Origin: Deltaproteobacteria bacterium
Lineage (GTDB): Bacteria; Desulfobacterota; DSM-4660; Desulfatiglandales; Desulfatiglandaceae
NCBI GenBank assembly: GCA_036733345.1
Contig: DAINAR010000003.1
Location: 8,052-72,051 of the forward strand
Direction of reading: 5' to 3'
DNA length: 64,000 nucleotides
The notes under the pieces are model-generated. The model was not told the DNA's origin and ran no database searches. It worked only from the letters and a program-made list of their open reading frames with translations. Every line of letters starts with the position of its first letter. The stretch's first letter is position 1. Made by a program: the position numbers and the translations under genes. This document shows positions 17,244 to 29,223 of this stretch, piece by piece.

Positions 17244-17285
17244 AAAAAAAGGCCTTCAGAAGATTTTTCTACTGAAGGCCTTTTT
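17244..17285 (-). terminator. Intrinsic terminator of gdhA (structurally bidirectional)
   Basis: A7-GGCCTTCAG-(12 nt)-CTGAAGGCC-T5, located 38 nt downstream of the gdhA stop. Confidence 0.85.
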
Positions 17286-17322: not shown

Positions 17323-18672
17323 CTATACCAGACCTTGATCCAGCATAGCATTTACAACCTTGACAAAACCGGCAATATTAGCACCTGCCATGTAATTGCC
17401 CTGCATTCCATATTCCGCAGACGCATCCAGACAAGTTTGATGAATACTTCTCATTATCATCTTAAGACGACTATCTACTTCTTCCCTTGGCCAGTTTAAA
17501 CGCATACTGTTCTGTGCCATCTCAAGACCTGATACTGCCACACCGCCGGCATTGGCTGCCTTGCCCGGGGCATAAAAGAGTTTATTATCAAGGAAGATGT
17601 TAATAGCCTCTGGCGTTGACGGCATATTTGATCCTTCACTAACAAGTCTGACGCCGTTATTGACTAGATTTTGTGCATCTTTTCCGTTTATTTCATTCTG
17701 GGTTGCACAGGGAAAGGCGCAATAGGCATTGTGGTTCCATAGGGGATTATAGTCAAGTGATGTGTCCACCTCCGTGAAAACTGCTTCCGAGTATTTGTCA
17801 ACATACTCACTGATCCTGCCGCGCCTGATATTTTTCAGCCTTTTTACAAACGCAAGCTTATCACTGTCTATTCCTTCTTCATCATAAATATAGCCCGATG
17901 AATCGGAAAGCGTGACAACCTTGCCACCCAGTTCAATGATTTTCTCAGCAGTATGTTGCGCTACATTTCCAGATCCGGAAACCAGACATACTTTCTCTTC
18001 CATACTGTCATTCTGAGTGGACAGCATCTCTGCAGCAAAATATACACAACCATAACCCGTTGCTTCGGGACGAATAAGGCTGCCGCCCCAGCCAAGGCTC
18101 TTGCCGGTAAGAACACCGGTAAACTCATTTCGGAGTCTTTTATACATACCGAAAAGATAACCAATTTCTCTGGCTCCAACGCCTATATCTCCTGCAGGCA
18201 CATCGGTGTCCGGACCAATATGACGATAGAGTTCAGCCATGAAACTCTGACAGAAATGCATAACCTCATTATCTGATTTTCCCTTGGGGTCAAAATCCGA
18301 TCCGCCTTTTCCACCTCCCATTGAAAGAGTAGTAAGGGCGTTTTTAAATACCTGTTCAAATGCAAGGAATTTAAGGATGCTTAAGTTAACGGACGGGTGA
18401 AACCGTATACCCCCTTTATAAGGTCCTATAGCACTATTCATCTGGATCCTGAATCCACGGTTAACCTGTACCTGTCCCTGGTCATCCATCCAGGGAACTC
18501 TGAACATTATAACGCGTTCAGGTTCCGTAATTCTTTCCAGAATTGCAGCCTGGCGATATTCCGGGTTTCGGTCAAGGACAGGCTGGACGGTTTCGAGTAC
18601 CTCTTGTACTGCCTGGTGAAATTCCTTTTCATAAGGATCTCTTGAAATTATTGTTTTTAAAAATTCAGACAT
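17323..18672 (-). CDS. gdhA: NADP-specific glutamate dehydrogenase
   Basis: KGGIRFHPSVNLSILKFLAFEQVFKNALTTLSMGGGKGGSDFDPKGKS motif. 449 aa, like E. coli GdhA. SD GGGAGG. Confidence 0.93.
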   Translation of the reverse strand: MSEFLKTIISRDPYEKEFHQAVQEVLETVQPVLDRNPEYRQAAILERITEPERVIMFRVPWMDDQGQVQVNRGFRIQMNSAIGPYKGGIRFHPSVNLSILKFLAFEQVFKNALTTLSMGGGKGGSDFDPKGKSDNEVMHFCQSFMAELYRHIGPDTDVPAGDIGVGAREIGYLFGMYKRLRNEFTGVLTGKSLGWGGSLIRPEATGYGCVYFAAEMLSTQNDSMEEKVCLVSGSGNVAQHTAEKIIELGGKVVTLSDSSGYIYDEEGIDSDKLAFVKRLKNIRRGRISEYVDKYSEAVFTEVDTSLDYNPLWNHNAYCAFPCATQNEINGKDAQNLVNNGVRLVSEGSNMPSTPEAINIFLDNKLFYAPGKAANAGGVAVSGLEMAQNSMRLNWPREEVDSRLKMIMRSIHQTCLDASAEYGMQGNYMAGANIAGFVKVVNAMLDQGLV

Positions 18673-18751: not shown

Positions 18752-21718
18752 CTAAGTCGCCACGATCACGCACTGTGATTTTCTGCCATCGATTTTAACA
18801 GTCAAAGGCTTTTTTAATCTTACATGCCTTAAATAGTCAGTCTCGTTTGAAGTTGGCAAAGACGTTAACCATTCCCAGTCTAAAAAATCCTCTGAATTTT
18901 CGGTAATGGTTATATATTGTATGCCTAATGAAGTTATATTTTGAAAAAAATGGGATCCCTGAGAAGGATCGGCCTTGAGTTTTTCGGTTCTTAGCTCAAC
19001 AATTGCCCCTACTCCTGAAATGTGTCTCCATTGAACAGGTATGCCAAGCCATCTGTCAGCAGAACCCCATCTCCCGGGGCCGATCAGGAGATATGGTCTT
19101 TTTTCAGCAAGCAGGATTGAATTTATCCTGCTTATTTCTTCAGCAATGATAACGGTTGATTCAGTTTTAAATGTATCGGGATTTACATATACAATATCCG
19201 AGATATTCTCATTCTTACCATTTCCAAGGGCCTGGCGGGATCGGCAGAAAGCCTTTTCAATATCGCGCGGAGTTATTTGTACATCAAATAATTCCTCATC
19301 AGCAACCATAGGTCTCATTTGAAGGAAATAGAAATTACTTTTATGTTGTTTGTTATTGCTGAGATTGACTGTAAATTCTATTTCAATTGGGCACCCCATG
19401 CCTTTTTGTCCGAGTTCAAGCAAGTCAGTAAGCAAATGAGGCAGCGGAAAGCTATTGTATTTCAAAACCTGTGCAAATGTTAAAATTTTAGGTCCAGGGA
19501 TATATCCCGTATCTCTGATGCGGTGTTCCTCAGACACATATGTGCTCGCAAGTGTTCTGACAGGGTGTTCATTTTCTGCTTCATCCAGATCTCTTCTTTC
19601 GAGATTTGAATATACTTCGAAATTAAGCTCGTCAGGATAGTTCTTTATTTTTAAGGCATAGAAAAAACGCTGTGCATTAGCCAGCATATCATCAACCGTT
19701 GAAAACTGCGGCATTAAATTAGGATATTTGGGCGAAAAGCGGAGCGTCTTTTCTCCTTCCACAACTATTTTGCCGAAACCAAGGGCAATATGTGCAATTC
19801 CCTCTTCAGATTTCATCGGGGAGATAGGATAGAAATTGTGGGATTGAGCTACACCCGAAATGGAGGGATAGAAGTATCTGCCGTATTCCTGTCCTGCCAA
19901 CTGCTGGATAATAACAGCCATGGCCTCATTTTGGGGCTGATTTGAAGTGCTTCTTGCAAACGCCTTGGGACCTTCATAATATGTAGAGGCATAGACCAGT
20001 TTGATGGCCGCAATAAGCTGCTGAAGCCTTCTGTATGGATCGGGATTATTATTGGGTACCATATATGTTTCATAAAGCCCTGCATAAGGCTGGAACTGCG
20101 CATCTTCAAGCAGGCTTGAGGATCGTACTGAAAGTGGTATTTTTACGCTGGACACAAAAGCTTCCAGATCTTTAATAAGCCATTCAGGCATGTTGGCTTT
20201 CAGGAAGGCAGCCGCCACTTCTTTGTCGGAAAAATCCTCTCTGGCAAATCGCTGAAGGCGGTTTTGTGTTACGAATGATTCAAAGCCATCGGTAGTAATA
20301 ACAAGAGTCTTTGGAATTATTATATTTGTTTCAGGATAATTGCTGTAGATTGCAGGAGTCTGCTGGAGCTGTGCAGACATGAAGGCCAGTCCCCTTGCTT
20401 TACCTCCGAGGGAGCCTTCTCCGATTTTAAGGAAATCCATGATGTATGGATCAAAAGTGGAGGAGTTGAATTTTGCAACTATTCCTTTTTGCCGCCACCT
20501 CCGAAGTTCACGTATATTTGATACAATATAGAACCTCATATCTTCAGGGCTTTTTAATTCTCCGGAACGCAAAATTCTAAATTTGGATGCAAGAGCAATC
20601 TCTGAACGCGCCATAATCCAGTTGGAAAACTGGTCTCTTTTTGCATGATATAGAAGGGATTCATCAGGTATCCCTGAAACCTTTTTTTCAAGGGATCGAA
20701 GGTCGGATGCACGGGCAATTTCAGAACCATCCGGCATCCGAAAAATGAAATCTCCGAACCCAAGATGGGTCAGAAAGAAATCATGAAGCTCAGTGAGTAA
20801 ATCCGGGGAATTCTTATCAAGAAAAACCGCCTGAATATTCTCTGCCTTATTCCTGTTTTTTGACTCAGCACTAAAGAGAAGAAGGGGCAGATAAGGCAAT
20901 TCATTCCTTATTTTTTTAAGGAGCTTAACCCCTCCAGTGTTATCAATTTTACCATTCTTTGGGATTCTGGTGTCGGATATGATGCCGATTAGAAAATCCC
21001 GAAATCTATCGTACAAATGTAGACCCTGTTCATAGGTTTCAGCCAGGAGAATCTTGGGTCTTGCGCGCATTTTTAGAAGACGGTGTTCTTCATTTAGGCC
21101 GACTTGCAGCACGGCCTGTGTCTGCTTGACGATTTCCCTGTAGATAAGAGGCAGAAAATATGAATAATAGACAGGTGAGTCCTCCACCAGAATCAATACG
21201 CGTACCTGAGCCTGTTTTGTGTCAGGTTCAACATTAAGATGGTCTTCAGCATTCTTGACAAGAGCAAGGAGCAGATCGGAGTTCCCGGACCATACAAAGA
21301 TTTTGTCAATTCCGCTGCAGTCTTTGTTTTCGGGAAGGGGATAGATTCCTCTGATGCTGTGGGTCAGGAGAAATACGGGTAATTCCGGCCTCATATTTTT
21401 TATTTCCAGGCCCAGAGAAAAACCATCCATATTATCCAGGTGAGGCATGGTAATAACCATGTCAAATTCTTTTTCGGCCAAAAGTTTCAGTGCATCATAG
21501 GCCGAAGACGTTCTTGTTACTCTGGGTGGCAGGCTCAGGTTTAATCCACTGTATTCGTTGACAATTCTGGATGCAAGGCTTCCATCTTCCTCCAGGATGA
21601 AGGCATCGTAGGGACTGGAGACAAGGAGTATTTCCCTCACCTTGATTTTCATGAGTTCATGAAATGTCTTGAAGTGAGAATAAAACTCACCGGGAAGACT
21701 GCTGTTTTCCATAACCAC
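18752..21718 (-). CDS. Receiver-like domains fused to a PEP/pyruvate-binding (PPDK_N, ATP-grasp) domain; function unknown
   Basis: N-terminal ILLVSSPYDAFILEEDG and a second CheY-like block (VRVLILVED...IISDTRIP). Central LGGKARGLAF and VRSSSLLEDAQFQPYAGLYETY typical of PPDK_N. C-terminal LLIGPGRWGSADRWLGIPV block. Confidence 0.7.
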   Translation of the reverse strand: MVMENSSLPGEFYSHFKTFHELMKIKVREILLVSSPYDAFILEEDGSLASRIVNEYSGLNLSLPPRVTRTSSAYDALKLLAEKEFDMVITMPHLDNMDGFSLGLEIKNMRPELPVFLLTHSIRGIYPLPENKDCSGIDKIFVWSGNSDLLLALVKNAEDHLNVEPDTKQAQVRVLILVEDSPVYYSYFLPLIYREIVKQTQAVLQVGLNEEHRLLKMRARPKILLAETYEQGLHLYDRFRDFLIGIISDTRIPKNGKIDNTGGVKLLKKIRNELPYLPLLLFSAESKNRNKAENIQAVFLDKNSPDLLTELHDFFLTHLGFGDFIFRMPDGSEIARASDLRSLEKKVSGIPDESLLYHAKRDQFSNWIMARSEIALASKFRILRSGELKSPEDMRFYIVSNIRELRRWRQKGIVAKFNSSTFDPYIMDFLKIGEGSLGGKARGLAFMSAQLQQTPAIYSNYPETNIIIPKTLVITTDGFESFVTQNRLQRFAREDFSDKEVAAAFLKANMPEWLIKDLEAFVSSVKIPLSVRSSSLLEDAQFQPYAGLYETYMVPNNNPDPYRRLQQLIAAIKLVYASTYYEGPKAFARSTSNQPQNEAMAVIIQQLAGQEYGRYFYPSISGVAQSHNFYPISPMKSEEGIAHIALGFGKIVVEGEKTLRFSPKYPNLMPQFSTVDDMLANAQRFFYALKIKNYPDELNFEVYSNLERRDLDEAENEHPVRTLASTYVSEEHRIRDTGYIPGPKILTFAQVLKYNSFPLPHLLTDLLELGQKGMGCPIEIEFTVNLSNNKQHKSNFYFLQMRPMVADEELFDVQITPRDIEKAFCRSRQALGNGKNENISDIVYVNPDTFKTESTVIIAEEISRINSILLAEKRPYLLIGPGRWGSADRWLGIPVQWRHISGVGAIVELRTEKLKADPSQGSHFFQNITSLGIQYITITENSEDFLDWEWLTSLPTSNETDYLRHVRLKKPLTVKIDGRKSQCVIVAT

Positions 21719-21853
21719 CGCTTTTGATATCCCTGGTTCATCAACAAGGCATCATTTATCGACAGAAAATCTCTGCTCTAAAACTGCAGGTCTGACTTTT
21801 TCTGGCGCCTTAATTGCTGATGAATCAGGGAATACGTTTTCAGGTTTATATTT

Positions 21854-23437
21854 TTATGAATCAATTATATTAAGTGCTTCTTCCCTGTAGGCATCCATAA
21901 CATAGGGAATCCCTGTTATTTTTGCACATTCTTCGGTAAGGGAAAAGATGTCCTGCCTGCTGATATATTTTATTTCCCAGTTTCTTGATCCGGCCATTAT
22001 CTGCTGGAGACCCACCTTTATCTTGTCTGTTGCGCTGAAGATTCCTATAGCGCCTAATGGAAGATCATCCGCTTCAGATCCGTATTTTTCCTTAAGAACT
22101 TCATAGTTCATAAAGATTTCAGCCTTTGTAGATCCGAATCTTGAGACTGTTGCAGGAAGTCCGCCATTTTCTCCTCTCAACCATTTTTCAGTGTTTTTGC
22201 CAACCATGCCGGGGATCATCAATGCACGGCCCATGCATACGGCTTTGCAGTAAGGTGCGCCAAGGGCCAATGCCTTAAATACATGGTCTTCAGAGGAAAA
22301 TCCTCCTGCAAAAGCTATATCAGGCACAAATTTGCCTCTTTTTGCTAAACGTTCACATAACTCATAAGTCATTGAATGCAAATAGATGGAAGGAATGCCC
22401 CATTCGTTCATCATTCGCCAGGGGCTCATTCCTGTGCCGCCGGGAGCTCCATCTACGGTTAAAAGGTCTATGCCTGCATCACTTGACCAGCGTATGGCCA
22501 TGGCCAGCTCCCTCATCGGGTAAGCGCCCGTTTTGAGAGTTACTCTCTTTGCCCCCAGCTTTCGAATCCTTTCAACTTCATTCATAAAGCCTTCCTGGTC
22601 AACGAATCCGAGGCGGGAGTGACGTTCAAAATGCTTAAGAGGGCCGGCCTTGAAAGATGCCTGAAATGCCGGGTCTTCAGGGTCGGGAGTCACGATGTAG
22701 CCGCGTCTTTTGAGTTCAATCGCCCTTTCAATAGAATCAACCTTGATTTCTCCTCCAATACACTTTGCACCCTGACCCCATTTTAGTTCGATAGTCTCAA
22801 CCCCTAATTTTTCTATTACGTATTCAGCAACACCGTTTCGTGTATCCTCAACATTCATTTGAACAAGTATATCCCCGTAACCTTCATGATAGCGACGATA
22901 TTCTTTTACACGACGGTCCATTTCAGGTGATTTTTTTATTAATCCATTGCTGTTATATTCCAGTTCAGGATCTATTCCACAGACATTTTCACCACAAACC
23001 AGGCTGATACCGCTTATTGCCGCTCCTATTGCAAAATGGCTCCAGTTTTTTCGTGCAATATCAGTGCTGCCGAGTGCGCCGGTAAATATTGGCACCTTCA
23101 TCCTGACTTTTTCATTAACGCCATAGGATGTTTCTGTGCTGACGTTTGGAAAAGTTGCTTTATCCGGGTCTGCTTCCACCCCTTTTGCTCCCATGGCATA
23201 ACCCATTATATTCAAATGAGAATAATCTACCGGATAATCTTTATCAGCTCCGGCAGTAACGCTTCCAAAGGGCTCTGGATAAAGCAGTTCCCTGCCACGG
23301 AATGTGGCTCTGAACATGTCACAGTTTCCCTTGCATCCGTCAACACACCTGCTGCATATTCCAGATTGAGGTGCTATATCGCGTGAACGATTTTTGGTTT
23401 CAAGTGCTTCATTGGCGTTTGGTCTTTGTAAGTTCAT
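21854..23437 (-). CDS. Glutamate synthase-related FMN-binding protein (stand-alone GltB domain-2-like) with N-terminal Cys cluster
   Basis: KWGQGAKCIGGEIK and DGAPGGTGMSP match GltB FMN-domain motifs. CSRCVDGCKGNC near the N-terminus. I place the start at ATG 23437 (AGGAGG 5 nt upstream) rather than the track start at 23485. Confidence 0.8.
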   Translation of the reverse strand: MNLQRPNANEALETKNRSRDIAPQSGICSRCVDGCKGNCDMFRATFRGRELLYPEPFGSVTAGADKDYPVDYSHLNIMGYAMGAKGVEADPDKATFPNVSTETSYGVNEKVRMKVPIFTGALGSTDIARKNWSHFAIGAAISGISLVCGENVCGIDPELEYNSNGLIKKSPEMDRRVKEYRRYHEGYGDILVQMNVEDTRNGVAEYVIEKLGVETIELKWGQGAKCIGGEIKVDSIERAIELKRRGYIVTPDPEDPAFQASFKAGPLKHFERHSRLGFVDQEGFMNEVERIRKLGAKRVTLKTGAYPMRELAMAIRWSSDAGIDLLTVDGAPGGTGMSPWRMMNEWGIPSIYLHSMTYELCERLAKRGKFVPDIAFAGGFSSEDHVFKALALGAPYCKAVCMGRALMIPGMVGKNTEKWLRGENGGLPATVSRFGSTKAEIFMNYEVLKEKYGSEADDLPLGAIGIFSATDKIKVGLQQIMAGSRNWEIKYISRQDIFSLTEECAKITGIPYVMDAYREEALNIIDS

Positions 23438-23473
23438 AATTCCTCCTGATTGATAAAAAACTGTTATTAAATG

Positions 23474-23489
23474 TCCAAATTGCATGCCT
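23474..23489 (-). promoter_or_regulatory. Sigma-54-like element with non-canonical -12 (AGGCAT-N5-TTGGA)
   Basis: Minus strand reads AGGCATGCAATTTGGA. GG and the -12 G have canonical spacing, but the -12 GC is GG. Lies about 40 nt upstream of the GltB-like ATG. Confidence 0.25.
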
Positions 23490-23556
23490 CATTTTGTCTC
23501 ACTAAGATTAACAGCGAGCAACAGATTAAAGGACATGAGATGAGGAAAAACGCCGT

Positions 23557-23601
23557 AAAATAAAAAAGGGCACCAATCCCCATCAGGAAAAAGACACCCT
23601 T
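23557..23601 (-). terminator. Intrinsic terminator-like hairpin in the ANTAR / GltB-like intergenic leader
   Basis: Minus-strand RNA: AAGGGUGUCUUUUUCC-UGAU-GGGGAUUGGUGCCCUU (16 positions, 2x2 internal loop, several G-U pairs) followed by UUUUUUAUUUU. Confidence 0.6.
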
Positions 23602-23638
23602 GTCTATTCACATATATAAGACCGCACGCCATTGTGCG
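23592..23638 (-). promoter_or_regulatory. Candidate ANTAR-binding dual hairpin (two hexaloops, A1/G4)
   Basis: P1 is CGCAC-AAUGGC-GUGCG (23638-23623). P2 is AGAC-AAGGGU-GUCU (23605-23592). P2 overlaps the 5' arm of the terminator. Confidence 0.45.
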
Positions 23639-23656
23639 CTTTTTCAGTAAAAAATC

Positions 23657-23685
23657 AGAATAAATAAGGAATAATTGCTTGTCAA
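23657..23685 (-). promoter_or_regulatory. Possible sigma-70 promoter (TTGACA-N17-TATTCT)
   Basis: Perfect -35 TTGACA (23685-23680), 17-nt spacer, then TATTCT (23662-23657). Lies about 40 nt downstream of the ANTAR gene stop. Confidence 0.4.
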
Positions 23686-23726
23686 GAAAAAAAGAATTCG
23701 GAAAGGCAGAAATAGGGTTTGGAGAA

Positions 23727-24470
23727 TTATTTTATGGCGTGAGGTATGCTGGAGTAATACCCCAGTTCTTCAGAAAGAAGTATCGCTTCGGCAACGTCGC
23801 GCATGGATTTTCTGGAATCCATGCTTCTTTTCTGGAGCCACCGGTAAGCCTCGTCAGCCTTCATATTTCTTTGGTGCATAAGGATCTCTTTAGCCCGCTC
23901 AACTACCTTTCGGGTCTCCAGCTCTTCCTGGATAACTTTTGTTTTAACCATGAGTTCCGTATTGAGTATTGCAATTGCCGCCTGGTTAGCAACAGCTGTT
24001 ATCAAGTTGACTTCTGTTTCAGAAAAATCATGAGGAACGGCTGTGAAACAGTTTAATACTCCGATTACTTTTTCATCCTTTACCTGAAGAGGAACACTTA
24101 CCATTGATACGAGGCCCAGTTTCCGGGCCATTTCCTTCTCTTTGAACAGTGCCTCTTTCAGAACTTCCTTAACGATAAGCGGCTTGTTATTGGAGGCCAC
24201 AAATCCGACTATTCCTTCATTCATATTCAAGGAACGGTCTTTAACATAGGCCTGGTCAATTGCCTGGGTAGCTTTAAGCCTGATTACGGGAGGCTTTTGA
24301 CTTTCATCTACAAGCCACAGGGAACAGATTTCAACACCTGTTACTTTGGCAGTCACCATTACAATAAGCTTCAGGATATCTTCCAGATAAAGGTCAGAAG
24401 TGATAGCGCGGCCTATATCGGTTATAGCCTTAATATACTTATCATAGGTTTCGGGAATAGCTTTTTCCAT
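23727..24470 (-). CDS. GAF domain / ANTAR domain RNA-binding antiterminator-type regulator
   Basis: C-terminal LETRKVVERAKEILMHQRNMKADEAYRWLQKRSMDSRKSMRDVAEAIL is a clear ANTAR motif, and the N-terminal part is GAF-like. The start is ambiguous: the track gives 24536, and I prefer ATG 24470 (MEKAIPE...). Confidence 0.8.
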   Translation of the reverse strand: MEKAIPETYDKYIKAITDIGRAITSDLYLEDILKLIVMVTAKVTGVEICSLWLVDESQKPPVIRLKATQAIDQAYVKDRSLNMNEGIVGFVASNNKPLIVKEVLKEALFKEKEMARKLGLVSMVSVPLQVKDEKVIGVLNCFTAVPHDFSETEVNLITAVANQAAIAILNTELMVKTKVIQEELETRKVVERAKEILMHQRNMKADEAYRWLQKRSMDSRKSMRDVAEAILLSEELGYYSSIPHAIK

Positions 24471-24603
24471 AAAAGAGGCAACCTCAGATTCTTTTGTAAT
24501 AATATAAAGAATAATAAAAAATATTCTGGTGCACATAAGTCAAAGGTGCATAGGTAAAAAGTAAGAATTAGGATATATTTATGGGCTTTATCTGTTAAGC
24601 CGA

Positions 24604-24636
24604 GAAAAAGAAAAAATCCTGGACAGTCTATCAGGA
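24604..24636 (-). terminator. Orphan intrinsic terminator-like hairpin in a 600-bp spacer
   Basis: Minus strand reads UCCUG-(10 nt)-CAGGA followed by UUUUUUCUUUUUC. Lies about 135 nt upstream of the ANTAR gene ATG and 500 nt downstream of the Fe-ADH stop. Confidence 0.4.
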
Positions 24637-25001
24637 AATTTAACAGAAAACAGATTCTGTGGCTTTGTGTTTTTGTACCCTTGACCCTGTAACTATGGAT
24701 AATAAAGAATAATATTGATTTAAGCGTTTAAAAGCAATAAAAATAATAATTGTTTTAAGAGAGCCCAATCAGAACAGGTGAAGAAGAAAATCAGATGAGG
24801 ACTGCAAGAATTGGAATGGCACAGATCAATACTGCTACTCCGTACTGTGGAAGATCTAAAAGGAAATACAAAAAAGATATTGTGCTTCCGGATTCCGGGT
24901 AAAGAGACTGTGTCATAATTCATTTTTTTGTCCCAGCCAGAGGCTGGTAAAATTTCGATGCGAAGCGAGAAATCTTTGTTTCAGTAATTTTATAGCGTTA
25001 A

Positions 25002-25092
25002 GATTCCTCATCACGCCATAGCGTGATTCGGAATGACATTTTTTATAATTTCGAAACATTCTGCAAGCCCGTAAGGCTTTTTACAATTTCAT
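25002..25092. repeat. Remnant related to family B / GGAATGA hairpin module
   Basis: GATTCCTCATCACGCcatAGCGTGATTCGGAATGAC plus GGCTTTTTACAATTTCATCAA, resembling CGACTTTTTACGAGTTCATCAA of the other copies. Confidence 0.4.
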
Positions 25093-25135
25093 CAATGTTA
25101 GATTGTGAATTTGATCCTGCTGAAACTTGGGCTGT

Positions 25136-26224
<1,089 letters not shown>

Positions 26225-27645: not shown

Positions 27646-29223
27646 CTACTTGTAATGTTTTGGATTTACGTCATGTTTTTTGACCTTGTATCCAAAAATA
27701 CGTTCAGTCGTCTTAAGGGCTATAGCAGCCTGTCTTATATTACCCCTGCTGCTTTTCAGGGCGTCAATGAGCAAATCTTTTTCGAATCTATCAACGGCAT
27801 CGACAAATGACTGGGTCTGTTGAGTGCCTGTATCCTGAGCCGTTTGAAGTGTGGGAGGTAAATGGTAGCTGTGAATTACCTGATCATCACAAAGCAAGAC
27901 TGCCCTTTCCATACAGTTTTCAAGTTCCCTGACATTACCCGGCCAGTGGTACTGAGTTAATGCGTCAATTGCGGGCGTTGAAATCCTTTTAATATCTTTG
28001 TTGTACTCGCGTGAATATTTTTCCAGGAAATAGTCTGCCAGCAAAAGAAGGTCAGCCTCTCTTTCCCTTAAAGGAGGAAGGTATATTGGGTATACGTTCA
28101 GACGATAAAAAAGGTCCTCTCGAAAAAGTCCGGAATCAACCGCCTTAGCCAGGTCCTGATTTGAAGCTGCAATAAGGCGGATATTGACTTGCATGGTTGT
28201 GGTCCCGCCTAATCTCTCAAGTTCTCTTTCCTGAAGTATCCTGAGCAGCTTTCCCTGGCTTTCAAGGGCAAGCGAACCGATTTCATCTAAAAAGATAGAA
28301 CCTCCATTGGCCAGTTCAAACTTGCCTGCCTTTTGACGGCTGGCACCTGTAAATGCCCCCTTTTCATAACCGAACAGTTCCGCTTCGACCAGATTAGCCG
28401 GTAATGCTGCACAGTTAATTTTTATCAATGGCTTGTCTGAGCGCAGGCTGTTAAAGTGAATAGCATTGGCAACGAGTTCCTTGCCTGTTCCGCTTTCTCC
28501 AAGAAGGAGGACATTGGCATTGCTTTTGGCCACCTGTGTTATCAGGTAGAACACCTCCTGCATCTTTCGGCTGTTGCCAATAATATTAGTGAAGCTGTAT
28601 TTTTTATCGAGTGTTTTTTTTAGCCGCATATTTTCCTGCCTTAGTTGTTCCGTTTCTCTGTTCAACTTCTCCAGCAGGGATACCTTCTGAGCAATCAGGC
28701 CGCTGATTACTGTTAACAGTCTAACATCTTCATCCAAAGGGCTGTCACTGTCAAAGACACGGTCAACACTGAGAGTACCGATTACTCTTCGGCCTTCCTT
28801 TATGGGCACACATATAAATGAAATTTTTGATTTATCTATCTGGCTCCTGGCCCCTGTCTTATCAAGAAAAAGCGGTTCAGCATCAATATGTGGAACAACC
28901 ATTGATCTTCCCGATTCAATAACTCGTCCTGTAATGCCTTCACCTAATTTGTATCTGCCCCTTGTTTTCTCTTTTTGTGAAATACCATGAGCGAGCTCAA
29001 TATGGGTCTCGGATGCATCACGGTTTAATAGGGTAATGGATCCACGTTTCATGCCGAGAAGTTCTGATAACATGTCGAGGATTTTATAAAGGGATTTTCT
29101 CATGTCAAGGGTGGCATGAATAGCCTTTGTTATTTCGTAAAGGCATGCAATTCTATCCGGTCCGGATTTATTACTTTTTCCAGTCGTAATTTTTCTTTGA
29201 TTTTTCATATCCTTTTTACCCAT
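27646..29223 (-). CDS. Sigma-54-dependent transcriptional activator, GAF-AAA+-HTH (NifA-like architecture)
   Basis: N-terminal GAF-like region, then GESGTGKE Walker A, GAFTGA loop (EKGAFTGA), ELFGYEKG, and a C-terminal Fis-type HTH ([17 protein letters not shown]). Exact start uncertain. Confidence 0.88.

Follow-up and report, generated by a model that had tools for sequence, protein, structure and literature searches.

The question raised by this locus is whether the gap between a gene for a GAF-ANTAR protein and the co-directional gene for an FMN-binding, GltB-like protein holds an RNA switch acting on the genes downstream. Such a switch had been predicted from the sequence of the window, by which we mean the whole 64-kb stretch of DNA that was analysed. 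Our results lead us to conclude that the element is probably (we would say at about 0.8, judging from sequence and comparative data) an ANTAR-type transcription attenuator in the 5' leader of an operon for the FMN protein, a REC-PPDK_N protein and gdhA.

The regulator gene and the downstream operon

Pfam searches bore out the same-strand gene content of the original prediction, namely GAF plus ANTAR, Glu_synthase, REC plus PPDK_N, and Glu/Leu/Phe/Val dehydrogenase (gdhA). The genes and the end of the operon are as follows.

23727..24470, minus strand: gene for the GAF-ANTAR one-component regulator, 247 aa (Pfam; TAA stop at 23729-23727)
21854..23437, minus strand: first gene, FMN-binding glutamate-synthase-family protein, 527 aa (PF01645, 59.5 bits)
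18752..21718, minus strand: second gene, REC plus PPDK_N (PEP-utilising, ATP-grasp type), 988 aa (Pfam)
17323..18672, minus strand: third gene, gdhA, NADP-specific glutamate dehydrogenase (NCBIfam NF006929, 751 bits against a cut-off of 536)
17244..17280, minus strand: operon-closing intrinsic terminator, GGCCUUCAG...CUGAAGGCC followed by UUUUUUU

The regulator most likely starts at 24470 (MEKAIPETY..., with GAGG 12 nt upstream) and not at the first ATG of the open reading frame at 24536, since all homologues are 236-251 aa long. By its sequence it holds a bona fide ANTAR domain (PF03861, 77.6 bits, cut-off 27.3), accompanied by a GAF_2 domain (68.8 bits). In an alignment with EutV (6wsh), Rv1626 and NasR, in which a 2-residue chain offset was allowed for, the Y and M of its EAYRWLQKRSM stretch align with Tyr164 and Met172, through which EutV contacts RNA (Walshe et al. 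2022, PMC8934654). RNA binding by the GAF-ANTAR protein, its binding as a dimer and the direction of regulation are predictions. Since the nearest counterparts of the GAF domain are those of NifA and PtsP/EI-Ntr, our guess is that its ligand could be a metabolite that reports nitrogen status, for example 2-oxoglutarate or glutamine.

The first gene of the operon encodes a protein of the domain-2 type only, which is named in the sources either 'FMN-binding glutamate synthase family protein' or 'archaeal-type glutamate synthase', and its start codon at 23437 follows a strong Shine-Dalgarno sequence, AGGAGGA. Nothing resembling a terminator was found on the minus strand in the 135 nt before the REC-PPDK_N gene, and the 79-nt gap before gdhA has no terminator-like site either. 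The order of the FMN-protein and REC-PPDK_N genes recurs in L105, L110, L129, L149, L193 and others. A PDB sequence search returned no relatives of either protein among solved structures, and the idea that the FMN protein might serve an alternative glutamate-forming branch, which formed part of the original prediction, is speculative.

Anatomy of the leader

Every element that had been placed in the gap, from the promoter to the U-tract, proved to be base-exact when checked against the sequence. The leader reads as follows, in the order of transcription.

23657..23685, minus strand: predicted sigma-70-type promoter, TTGACA (23685-23680), N17, TATTCT (23662-23657)
23623..23638, minus strand: P1 hairpin, CGCAC (23638-23634), hexaloop AAUGGC (DNA AATGGC, 23633-23628), GUGCG (23627-23623)
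23606..23622, minus strand: P1-P2 linker, 17 nt, not conserved in sequence in the alignment
23592..23605, minus strand: P2 hairpin, the proposed antiterminator, AGAC (23605-23602), AAGGGU (23601-23596), GUCU (23595-23592)
23566..23601, minus strand: long imperfect hairpin of an intrinsic terminator, AAGGGTGTC..TTTCC-TGAT-GGGGA..GGTGCCCTT
23557..23565, minus strand: terminator U-tract, TTTTATTTT in DNA and UUUUAUUUU as RNA
23586..23643, minus strand: match of a covariance model (R2) for the dual hexaloop element, 41.0 bits, E = 1.1e-11

Both hexaloops, AAUGGC in P1 and AAGGGU in P2, carry the A at position 1 and the G at position 4 that had been claimed for them, and their stems (5 bp and 4 bp) reach the minimum of 3 bp used by Ramesh et al. 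(2012). Together with the terminator overlap and an ANTAR protein in the same genome, these dual stems and A1/G4 loops correspond to the motif definition given by those authors. Base 6 of the P2 loop is U in the window and in its relative L001, where the family consensus has C, so that A-U closure and an AGGG tetraloop are possible in the free RNA of the window.

Folding and mutual exclusivity of P2 and the terminator

The 5' arm of the terminator (23601-23593) consists of the loop and the 3' arm of P2. When the minus-strand leader was folded with RNAfold, as the original prediction had proposed, the minimum-free-energy structure contained P1 and the terminator. P1, at -7.6 kcal/mol, is present in both alternative folds, while P2 alone reaches -2.8 kcal/mol against -15.1 kcal/mol for the terminator, a G+C-containing hairpin with a U-run directly 3', as is characteristic of intrinsic terminators. 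A simple terminator scanner does not list the hairpin at 23601-23566 because of its internal loops.

The mutual exclusivity of the two structures extends to related leaders, as the P2 loop is base-paired to the terminator's 3' arm in the RNAfold structures of 43 of 44 orthologues. RNAalifold independently made the same pairing, with compensatory changes in the consensus; the pair at P2 loop position 3, for example, is AU in 33 leaders, GC in 3 and CG in 3. At least four U residues directly follow the hairpin in the orthologous leaders folded.

Conservation and covariation

The comparison set comprised 80 species-level genomes, mostly Desulfobacterales, each of which encodes an orthologue of the regulator (73-96% identical). 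An equivalent dual hairpin was found in the same place and in exactly one copy at 46 of the 80 loci, always just 3' of the regulator gene and 5' of the next co-directional gene. This gene encodes the FMN-binding glutamate-synthase-family protein in 44 of the 46 cases and is otherwise gdhA or the REC-PPDK_N gene. Viewed from the target side, a co-directional GltB-like gene is present at 45 loci, of which 44 carry the element and the remaining one (L041) has a variant of it. Cultivable carriers include Desulfosarcina alkanivorans PL12 (L007) and D. widdelii PP31 (L017). The remaining 34 genomes have no leader adjoining the regulator gene, in most cases because a convergent gene follows it there. 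No autoregulatory copy was found 5' of the regulator gene in the 80 loci, covering up to 4 kb on each side.

Covariation in P1, which had been named as a check on the prediction, is clearly present in the orthologues: six of eight pairs show compensatory double changes, and 90% of cells are paired. The covariation score is 0.348, compared with 0.188 in shuffles (none of 500 reached the observed value) and 0.09-0.15 in slid controls, and one P1 pair occurs as GC (19), AU (7), CG (5), UA (4) and GU (3). P1 extends up to 8-13 bp in the orthologues, and the P2 core measures 3-6 bp. In a seed of 41 sequences, G4 never varies in either loop; A1 never varies in P1, and position 1 of the P2 loop is A in 38 sequences and G in 3. 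The P2 core GAC-A.xG..-GUC is invariant in these 41 seed leaders, and the loops share the consensus AA(A/U/C)GGC with AC/GU closing pairs. A strict motif scan missed L055, L066, L056 and L041, in which the P2 loop starts with G (ACGAAGGCGT) or P1 differs; relaxed patterns and the covariance model regained most of the loci missed in this way.

Model R2 was our own and was built from other genomes only, with the window and L001, a 96%-identical relative, left out, so the 41.0 bits of the window site come from a model that had not seen it. This score lies well above noise, which had been a further check proposed for the element: with both strands searched and filters off, the next-best match in the 64 kb reached 12.6 bits, and the same search revealed no further copies in the window that could form a local regulon. 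A 12-bit match at 25602-25663 on the plus strand is a long inverted repeat within an Fe-ADH open reading frame and was treated as noise. An exact search for ACAANGGCGT-N16-30-GACAANGGNGTC gave one match in the window and none in 100 dinucleotide-preserving shuffles. Rfam 15 gave no match at the gathering threshold in the whole window; since Rfam apparently holds no ANTAR-target model, this null says nothing either way.

In the window the loop cores of P1 and P2 lie 32 nt apart, within the 28-39 nt seen in the family (median, 33 nt). In the Enterococcus faecalis eut leaders the linker measures 5-12 nt, linkers of 3 or 14 nt are non-functional for EutV, and a change of the eutP linker to 14 nt abolished control by EutV (Ramesh et al. 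2012, PMC3369931). The 17-nt linker of the window lies beyond that range. The tightness of the loop-to-loop distance across the family speaks for a spacing rule particular to the family and against an absence of constraint, and such a rule would depart from the eut paradigm.

Promoter and the place of the terminator

The terminator could in principle belong to the regulator gene, in which case the hairpin and U-tract would simply end the GAF-ANTAR transcript, the downstream genes would have a separate promoter, and P1 and P2 would be incidental. The hairpin does stand 3' of the regulator gene, read-through out of that gene would stop there as well, and in the window the U-tract lies 119 nt from the ATG of the FMN-protein gene. 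Several observations nevertheless speak against this view. The promoter that precedes P1 is the best sigma-70-like site in 21500-25200 (10 of 12 matches), and a TTGAC(A) box stands 5' of the element within 120 nt in all 47 leaders and at a distance of 42-65 nt in 40 of them, whereas TTGAC occurs in 14% of random 120-nt windows. In orthologous leaders an A-rich stretch stands 5' of this box and a conserved GCTAAA-like -10 box follows, and we regard the leader promoter as a predicted sigma-70-type promoter that is conserved in orthologues; a sigma-54 promoter, as in the Geobacter nif leaders, was rejected because the conserved box is TTGACA-like. The conserved box 5' of P1 places the terminator inside a new transcript. 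In 20 of 46 loci, moreover, the U-tract is only 25-60 nt from the start codon, leaving no room for a second promoter, and in the window itself no minus-strand promoter-like site was found between 23556 and 23437. An ordinary terminator would need neither the covariation of P1 nor the invariant loops, and the element also precedes the FMN gene at loci that have no ANTAR gene upstream. Because of where the promoter lies and how close the terminator comes to the start codon, we reject the plain-terminator explanation as exceedingly improbable and place the terminator within the leader, as originally predicted.

Metagenome occurrences and the choice of regulator

The exact loop-core pattern recovered 120 metagenome loci, and the FMN-protein gene comes next after the element in 77 of them, 46 with an ANTAR gene directly upstream. 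Other metagenome targets are glnA, gdhA and genes for a GATase/GXGXG protein and NrtA-like nitrate-binding proteins, the kind of nitrogen-assimilation genes that ANTAR regulons typically contain, and most of the loci with these other targets show a terminator overlap of the same kind. One match (L113) was discarded as a 20-nt tandem repeat that is not an attenuator. Among the 67 informative metagenome leaders before the FMN gene, 21 have no ANTAR gene directly upstream, which indicates that adjacency is common and not obligatory. The pairing of this regulator with this target is thus proposed from linkage only.

This raises the possibility that the leader is a genuine ANTAR attenuator controlled by another ANTAR protein encoded elsewhere, for example a GnfR/NasT-type REC-ANTAR protein, while the neighbouring regulator has other targets. 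The metagenome leaders that lack an adjacent ANTAR gene and the 34 regulator-carrying genomes that lack an adjoining leader would fit such an arrangement, as would the generic nature of the loop sequences, the same cores of which stand before glnA and nrtA-like genes of other organisms. We consider it unlikely all the same, since regulator and leader adjoin each other in constant order and orientation in 46 of 80 genomes and on 46 metagenome contigs, the 64-kb window shows no second leader or other ANTAR gene, and the unusual conservation of the regulator is in step with the invariant loop cores. That the leader is instead a protein-independent riboswitch or some other RNA-only sensor sharing the terminator appears highly improbable: its general architecture, a leader with alternative folds, would suit one, and the 119 nt of leader 3' of the terminator hold no assigned element, but no Rfam family matches 23400-23760 at E <= 10, the conserved part amounts to two small hairpins with a non-conserved linker and lacks a multi-helix junction or pocket, ANTAR domains recognise exactly the bases that are conserved, and linkage of the element to an ANTAR gene is tight. 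The terminated leader of about 90 nt might also act as a small RNA or a decoy that titrates an ANTAR protein, possibly besides attenuation in cis. The default product would be short and stable with a complete predicted ANTAR site, and EutX/Rli55 provides a precedent for a decoy RNA that titrates EutV. Against this, the element always lies directly before a coding gene in sense orientation and nothing indicates a target in trans, so that we think such a function very unlikely.

Proposed mechanism

In the attenuator that we favour, RNA polymerase would start at the sigma-70-type promoter (TTGACA at 23685) between the regulator gene and P1, and P1 would form first and be stable. Without an active regulator, the weak 4-bp P2 would be outcompeted by the far more stable terminator that shares its loop and 3' arm, and transcription would end at the U-tract (23565-23557), approximately 119 nt short of the start codon. 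Once the GAF domain is active, a dimer of the GAF-ANTAR protein may hold the AxxGxx hexaloops of P1 and P2, keeping P2 closed and blocking the terminator, and read-through would then continue to the end of the operon after gdhA (17280-17244).

A broader reading is tentative and, in our view, rather doubtful as a whole. It would make the regulator a one-component sensor of nitrogen or carbon status, with 2-oxoglutarate or glutamine as example signals (compare the GAF domains of NifA and PtsP), which antiterminates a widespread but undescribed ammonium-assimilation module of the Desulfobacterales. The core of this module would be a non-canonical, stand-alone FMN enzyme of the 'glutamate synthase domain 2' type together with the REC-PPDK_N protein and glutamate dehydrogenase, and the regulon may include unlinked leaders of glnA and FlpD/MvhD-like genes. 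If this were true, both the RNA target and the ligand of a GAF-ANTAR protein would be defined for the first time.

Significance

ANTAR proteins with GAF or PAS sensors form a large class, and no GAF-ANTAR protein had been characterised according to the literature of 2012 (Ramesh et al., PMC3369931) and 2020. The locus described here pairs such a regulator with a probable cis-encoded RNA target, supported by covariation in more than 40 species, and the question of the GAF ligand becomes directly testable with the P1-P2 RNA as a read-out. It also marks the FMN-binding glutamate-synthase-family protein and the REC-PPDK_N protein as predicted nitrogen-regulated genes in the Desulfobacterales, a group with a major part in the carbon and sulfur cycles of marine sediments. 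We found no published description of a GAF-ANTAR system in this group, in a literature coverage that is incomplete and leaves room for an earlier one, and a term search of the supplementary tables of Ramesh et al. 2012 gave no entry for Desulfobacterium, Desulfococcus or Desulfatibacillum.

Comparison with known systems

The locus belongs, on well-supported grounds, to the known class of ANTAR attenuators, and its mechanism is not new; it represents an element common to many sulfate-reducing bacteria rather than a new regulatory principle. The E. faecalis eutP, eutG, eutS and eutA leaders, which are controlled by EutV/EutW, likewise contain two tandem short hairpins with A1/G4 hexaloops (PMC3369931, PMC8934654), of which P2 overlaps an intrinsic terminator (PMC3369931), and the Tyr and Met RNA contacts of the ANTAR regulator EutV are conserved here (PMC8934654). 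The eut regulator is a phosphorylated REC-ANTAR protein that serves ethanolamine utilisation, in contrast to the one-component GAF-ANTAR protein and the glutamate-metabolism operon of the present locus. The loop consensus and closing pairs are also much more strictly conserved here than in the eut leaders.

In the Firmicutes, predicted ANTAR leaders stand before glutamate synthase or 'glutamate synthase-like' genes and beside an ANTAR gene, and they include those of Desulfotomaculum reducens, Carboxydothermus and Desulforudis (Ramesh et al. 2012, PMC3369931, Fig. 9A and Table S2). The regulators of these Gram-positive bacteria are REC-ANTAR proteins, unlike the GAF-ANTAR protein considered here.

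The precedent of GnfR in Geobacter, which had been invoked for the prediction, is real, as GnfK/GnfR antiterminate the nif, glnK and amtB leaders of Geobacter sulfurreducens (Ueki & Lovley 2010, PMC2995071). That system comes from a related lineage (formerly Deltaproteobacteria) and acts in nitrogen metabolism; the GnfR-bound site (GGCAAGGGCGCC; GGCAANGGCGCC) carries an AANGGC loop and overlaps a premature terminator, both as observed here (PMC2995071). Unlike the present regulator, GnfR is a response regulator that the kinase GnfK activates; the promoters of its leaders depend on RpoN, whereas the one here is sigma-70-like, and gdhA of Geobacter is controlled at initiation by GnfM and not by antitermination (PMC2995071).

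A further likeness is to NasR and the Klebsiella nasF leader, in which the gene for a one-component sensor-ANTAR protein immediately precedes the leader and operon under its control and a hexaloop hairpin carries A1 and G4. The NasT-controlled nas/nir leaders of the Proteobacteria are grouped with NasR/nasF as related ANTAR systems, and our loop-core pattern also retrieves leaders with an equal terminator overlap before genes for NrtA-like nitrate-binding proteins. NasR senses nitrate and nitrite through a NIT domain whereas the present regulator has a GAF domain, and the targets of the two differ.

Anatomy of the leader

The original prediction had placed a dual-hairpin antitermination leader between the GAF-ANTAR regulator gene and the gene for a GltB-like, FMN-binding glutamate-synthase-family protein (here, FMN protein), and when the minus strand of 23380-23800 was read, all of its elements were found in place. 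The TTGACA/TATTCT site is the top promoter-like site of the region, with 10 of 12 matches.

Features of the leader (P1 and P2, tandem hexaloop hairpins) and the end of the downstream genes
23729-23727, minus: stop codon of the GAF-ANTAR gene
23685-23657, minus: promoter, TTGACA (23685-23680), 17-nt spacer, TATTCT (23662-23657)
23638-23623, minus: P1, CGCAC-AATGGC-GTGCG
23622-23606, minus: linker, 17 nt
23605-23592, minus: P2, AGAC-AAGGGT-GTCT
23601-23566, minus: terminator, a long imperfect hairpin whose 5' arm is the P2 loop plus the P2 3' arm
23565-23557, minus: terminator tail TTTTATTTT, directly 3' of the long hairpin
23437, minus: ATG of the downstream gene, preceded by AGGAGGA
17280-17244, minus: strong intrinsic terminator GGCCTTCAG-N12-CTGAAGGCC plus T7, directly after gdhA

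The minimum-free-energy (MFE) fold of this leader (RNAfold) consists of P1 and the terminator, and since P2 alone (-2.8 kcal/mol) is much weaker than the terminator (-15.1 kcal/mol; P1, -7.6 kcal/mol), the default state appears to be termination, with P2 needing help to form. The 119 nt from the U-tract to the start codon (23437-23556, minus) carry no assigned feature, and because other genomes have anything from 25 to 372 nt here, a conserved element there is unlikely.

Conservation and covariation

Rfam, which seemingly holds no ANTAR-target family, gave no match at the leader even at E <= 10. We retrieved 80 loci from a one-genome-per-species collection with an alignment of GAF-ANTAR homologues (A1), nearly all from Desulfobacterales or Thermodesulfobacteriota and with 73-96% regulator protein identity, and scanned 600 nt 3' of each regulator gene. 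A simple scan found the same arrangement in about half of them: (c)AC-AAnGGC-GU(g), 8-21 nt, GAC-AAAGGC-GUC and then a hairpin, whose 3' arm in the orthologous leaders is GCGCCUUUUU. Among 41 aligned leader sequences (A2), loop positions 1 and 4 of P1 (A1, G4) and G4 of P2 are invariant, and P2 position 1 is A in 38 sequences and G in 3 (at least 90% conserved). The selection pattern itself dictated the two closing pairs of either hairpin, and these are given no weight; the outer pairs were free to vary. P1 shows both-side changes in 6 of 8 pairs with 90% of cells paired, one pair alone occurring as GC 19, AU 7, CG 5, UA 4, GU 3 and UG 1; its covariation score of 0.348 compares with 0.188 +/- 0.014 for shuffled alignments (0 of 500 reach 0.348) and with 0.09-0.15 after shifting the partner by 1-3 columns.

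A covariance model built from A2 (R1) detected the element in 46 of the 80 loci (6 of them outside the seed), a single copy each time and always on the regulator's strand, directly downstream of its gene; the predicted dual hairpin, with its covarying P1 and its retained A1/G4 loops (P2 A1 at the level noted), has thus held up across orthologous regions. A second model (R2), built solely from 43 other genomes, without either the window or L001, its 96%-identical relative, scores 23586-23643 (minus) at 41.0 bits (E = 1.1e-11), against 12.6 bits for the next-best match in the 64 kb (both strands, filters off), and the window has a single instance of the exact loop-core pattern, against none in 100 shuffles. 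The second-best covariance-model match (12-13 bits), at 25602-25663 (plus), is a long inverted repeat (GATTCTATACAATG...GTATAGAATC) inside the Fe-alcohol-dehydrogenase ORF of the opposite strand and is probably noise.

The mutual exclusivity of P2 and the terminator that had been proposed is likewise borne out. In the MFE structures of 44 leaders, each folded from P1 through the U-run, the downstream arm pairs with four or more of the six P2-loop bases in 43 cases and P1 stays intact; the full leaders average -32.7 kcal/mol and their 5' parts by themselves -15.6 kcal/mol. RNAalifold predicts the same P2-loop/3'-arm helix from an independent MAFFT alignment spanning P2 to the U-run, with compensatory pairs at P2 loop position 3 (AU 33, GC 3, CG 3), so the exclusive folds are conserved and are no peculiarity of the window.

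Promoter and operon

TTGAC lies within 120 nt upstream of the element in 47 of 47 leaders, compared with 14% of random 120-nt windows, and in 40 of these it lies 42-65 nt upstream, with an A-rich stretch before it and a conserved GCTAAA-like box at -10 distance after it; in a few genomes it falls within the 3' end of the regulator ORF. The U-run is 25-60 nt from the start codon in 20 of 46 loci, leaving too little room for another promoter, and no minus-strand promoter-like site was seen in the window between the terminator and ATG 23437. Given this conserved upstream promoter, the short gaps and the lack of a promoter between, the hairpin and U-tract are a leader attenuator and not merely the end of the regulator mRNA.

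Pfam confirmed the predicted gene content (GAF plus ANTAR, Glu_synthase FMN domain, REC plus PPDK_N, and glutamate dehydrogenase). No minus-strand terminator-like site was found in the gaps between the FMN gene and the REC-PPDK_N gene (135 nt) or between the latter and gdhA (79 nt), and the same gene order recurs in several other contigs; with the strong terminator after gdhA, we infer from these sequence features that the three genes form one operon and would be co-transcribed.

The stand-alone FMN protein (21854-23437, minus) is the main gene behind the leader; its PF01645 match reaches only 59 bits, and neither an NCBIfam model nor a PDB entry related by sequence exists for it. Two or more FMN-protein subfamilies occur behind this leader in different genomes, sharing about 85-95% and about 48-57% identity with the window copy. 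The 988-aa REC-PPDK_N protein (18752-21718, minus) joins a response-regulator receiver to PPDK_N (PEP-utilising enzyme, ATP-grasp) and has no sequence relative among solved structures; its gene is kept between the FMN gene and gdhA in many Desulfobacterales contigs.

Genes behind the leader in other genomes

Of the 45 genome loci in which a co-directional FMN-protein gene follows the regulator, 44 have the element and one (L041) has a variant; in one locus each, gdhA (L002) or the REC-PPDK_N gene (L024) lies directly behind the element. Where the element is absent (34 loci), the regulator gene is mostly followed by a convergent gene or by the end of the contig. The exact pattern ACAANGGCGT-N16-30-GACAAAGGCGTC matched at least 120 loci in metagenome contigs, with the P2-terminator overlap in nearly all among the matches listed.

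Genes downstream of the element in metagenome loci
FMN-binding glutamate-synthase-family protein: at least 77 (ANTAR gene directly upstream in 46 and absent from that position in 21; contig too short in 10)
FlpD/MvhD-like: at least 8
NMT1_2/NrtA-like nitrate-type binding protein: at least 8
glnA: at least 5
gdhA: at least 2
GATase+GXGXG protein: at least 1
porin: at least 1

Small FlpD/MvhD-like genes (methyl-viologen-reducing hydrogenase delta subunit), which one would not expect behind a nitrogen-type ANTAR leader, follow a dual-hexaloop leader with overlapping terminator in L085, L112, L123, L124, L126, L155, L164 and L185. The glnA leaders (L098, L109, L139, L173, L187) have two GACAAAGGCGUC hexaloop hairpins, and there the terminator 3' arm pairs with the loop of the first hairpin and encloses the second, inverting the usual roles of P1 and P2. 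Variant leaders occur in L055 (4900-4954) and L066 (4904-4961), where P1 is GCCGCCCAGGGTTGTGCGGC without an AxxGxx hexaloop (only 24-25 bits by covariance model), and in L041 (some 130-210 nt past the stop codon of the ANTAR gene), which has an extra hairpin between P1 and the true P2 (GGACGATGGCGTCC). At L113 (5464-5514), ahead of a nicotinate phosphoribosyltransferase-like gene, the ACAAAGGCGTC core belongs to three tandem copies of a 20-nt repeat (GGCAGGATGACAAAGGCGTC) and, with no terminator after it, is probably not an attenuator.

The GAF-ANTAR protein

All regulator homologues are 236-251 aa long, so the start is probably ATG 24470 (MEKAIPETY, GAGG upstream) and not 24536. The ANTAR domain (77.6 bits, Pfam) has Rv1626, EutV (6wsh) and NasR (4akk) as its nearest solved relatives. 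In EutV, Tyr164 stacks on G4 and Met172 acts as a "plug" (Walshe et al., PMC8934654), and both align with the Y and M of the regulator's EAYRWLQKRSM (PDB chain offset, 2 residues). The GAF domain is nearest to those of NifA (NCBIfam, sub-threshold) and PtsP/EI-Ntr (PDB 3ci6, 3trc). These GAF domains respond to 2-oxoglutarate and/or glutamine, and by analogy the same metabolites might be the regulator's ligand, which is only a lead.

Upstream of the GAF-ANTAR gene, at a distance of 3 kb and beyond DegT-type aminotransferase and Fe-ADH genes, lies a gene for a GAF-containing sigma-54 enhancer-binding protein (27646-29223, minus), which might add a second layer of regulation. In L129 and L001 these genes keep their synteny with the operon.

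Mechanism and alternatives

The original reading is supported by what the sequences show: the leader's anatomy and conservation, its covariation, its promoter, the mutually exclusive folds and an ANTAR domain that looks competent. We give a probability of roughly 80% to the leader acting by classical ANTAR antitermination. A sigma-70-type promoter would drive the leader transcript and P1 would fold; without active protein the terminator would beat the 4-bp P2 and the transcript would end at 23557-23565. Active GAF-ANTAR protein, presumably a dimer as in EutV, would bind both hexaloops and stabilise P2, letting polymerase read into the FMN-protein/REC-PPDK_N/gdhA operon. We infer RNA binding, the identity of the regulator, and the sign and signal of regulation.

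The foremost alternative, though an improbable one, is that a different ANTAR protein acts on the leader in trans, as the linkage of regulator and leader is frequent and yet not universal. That the leader yields a functional short RNA or decoy, possibly on top of attenuation, seems quite unlikely. We consider it slightly less probable still that the hairpin is a plain terminator with a separate promoter for the downstream gene, a reading that its position behind the regulator gene invites but that is contradicted by where the promoter lies and by how close the start codon is. A protein-free riboswitch would also account for exclusive folds, but the leader has no complex fold and its conserved bases are the ANTAR contacts, and we hold this equally improbable.

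Comparison with known ANTAR systems

ANTAR-target RNAs are defined by two hairpins of at least 3 bp, A1/G4 hexaloops, a variable linker and a P2-overlapping terminator (Ramesh et al. 2012, PMC3369931), and the window element has all of these features. ANTAR leaders precede glutamate/glutamine synthases, nitrate transporters, P-II and others, a spectrum that our metagenome downstream genes match, and predicted ones precede glutamate-synthase-like genes in Firmicutes (Ramesh et al. 2012, PMC3369931); a text search of the tables of that study gave no Desulfobacterium, Desulfococcus or Desulfatibacillum entry. Our literature search, with its incomplete coverage, found no description of a GAF-ANTAR/dual-hexaloop leader system, and according to published statements (2012, 2020) no GAF-ANTAR protein had been characterised.

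The linker is 17 nt in the window leader, in contrast to 5-12 nt in eut leaders, where a 14-nt linker abolished EutV control (Ramesh et al. 2012, PMC3369931). As loop-to-loop distances among orthologous leaders stay within 28-39 nt (median 33; window, 32), this suggests that the GAF-ANTAR leader family has a spacing geometry different from that of eut and just as strict. The Geobacter precedent cited in the original prediction is apt, since the GnfR site GGCAANGGCGCC has the same loop as the window leader. In architecture NasR comes nearest: it is a one-component sensor-ANTAR protein, and its gene lies immediately upstream of the leader that it controls. A GAF-ANTAR leader would not surprise a specialist, and the locus makes the question of the GAF-ANTAR ligand testable; the leader is a clean, phylogenetically well-supported case of the known ANTAR attenuator class.
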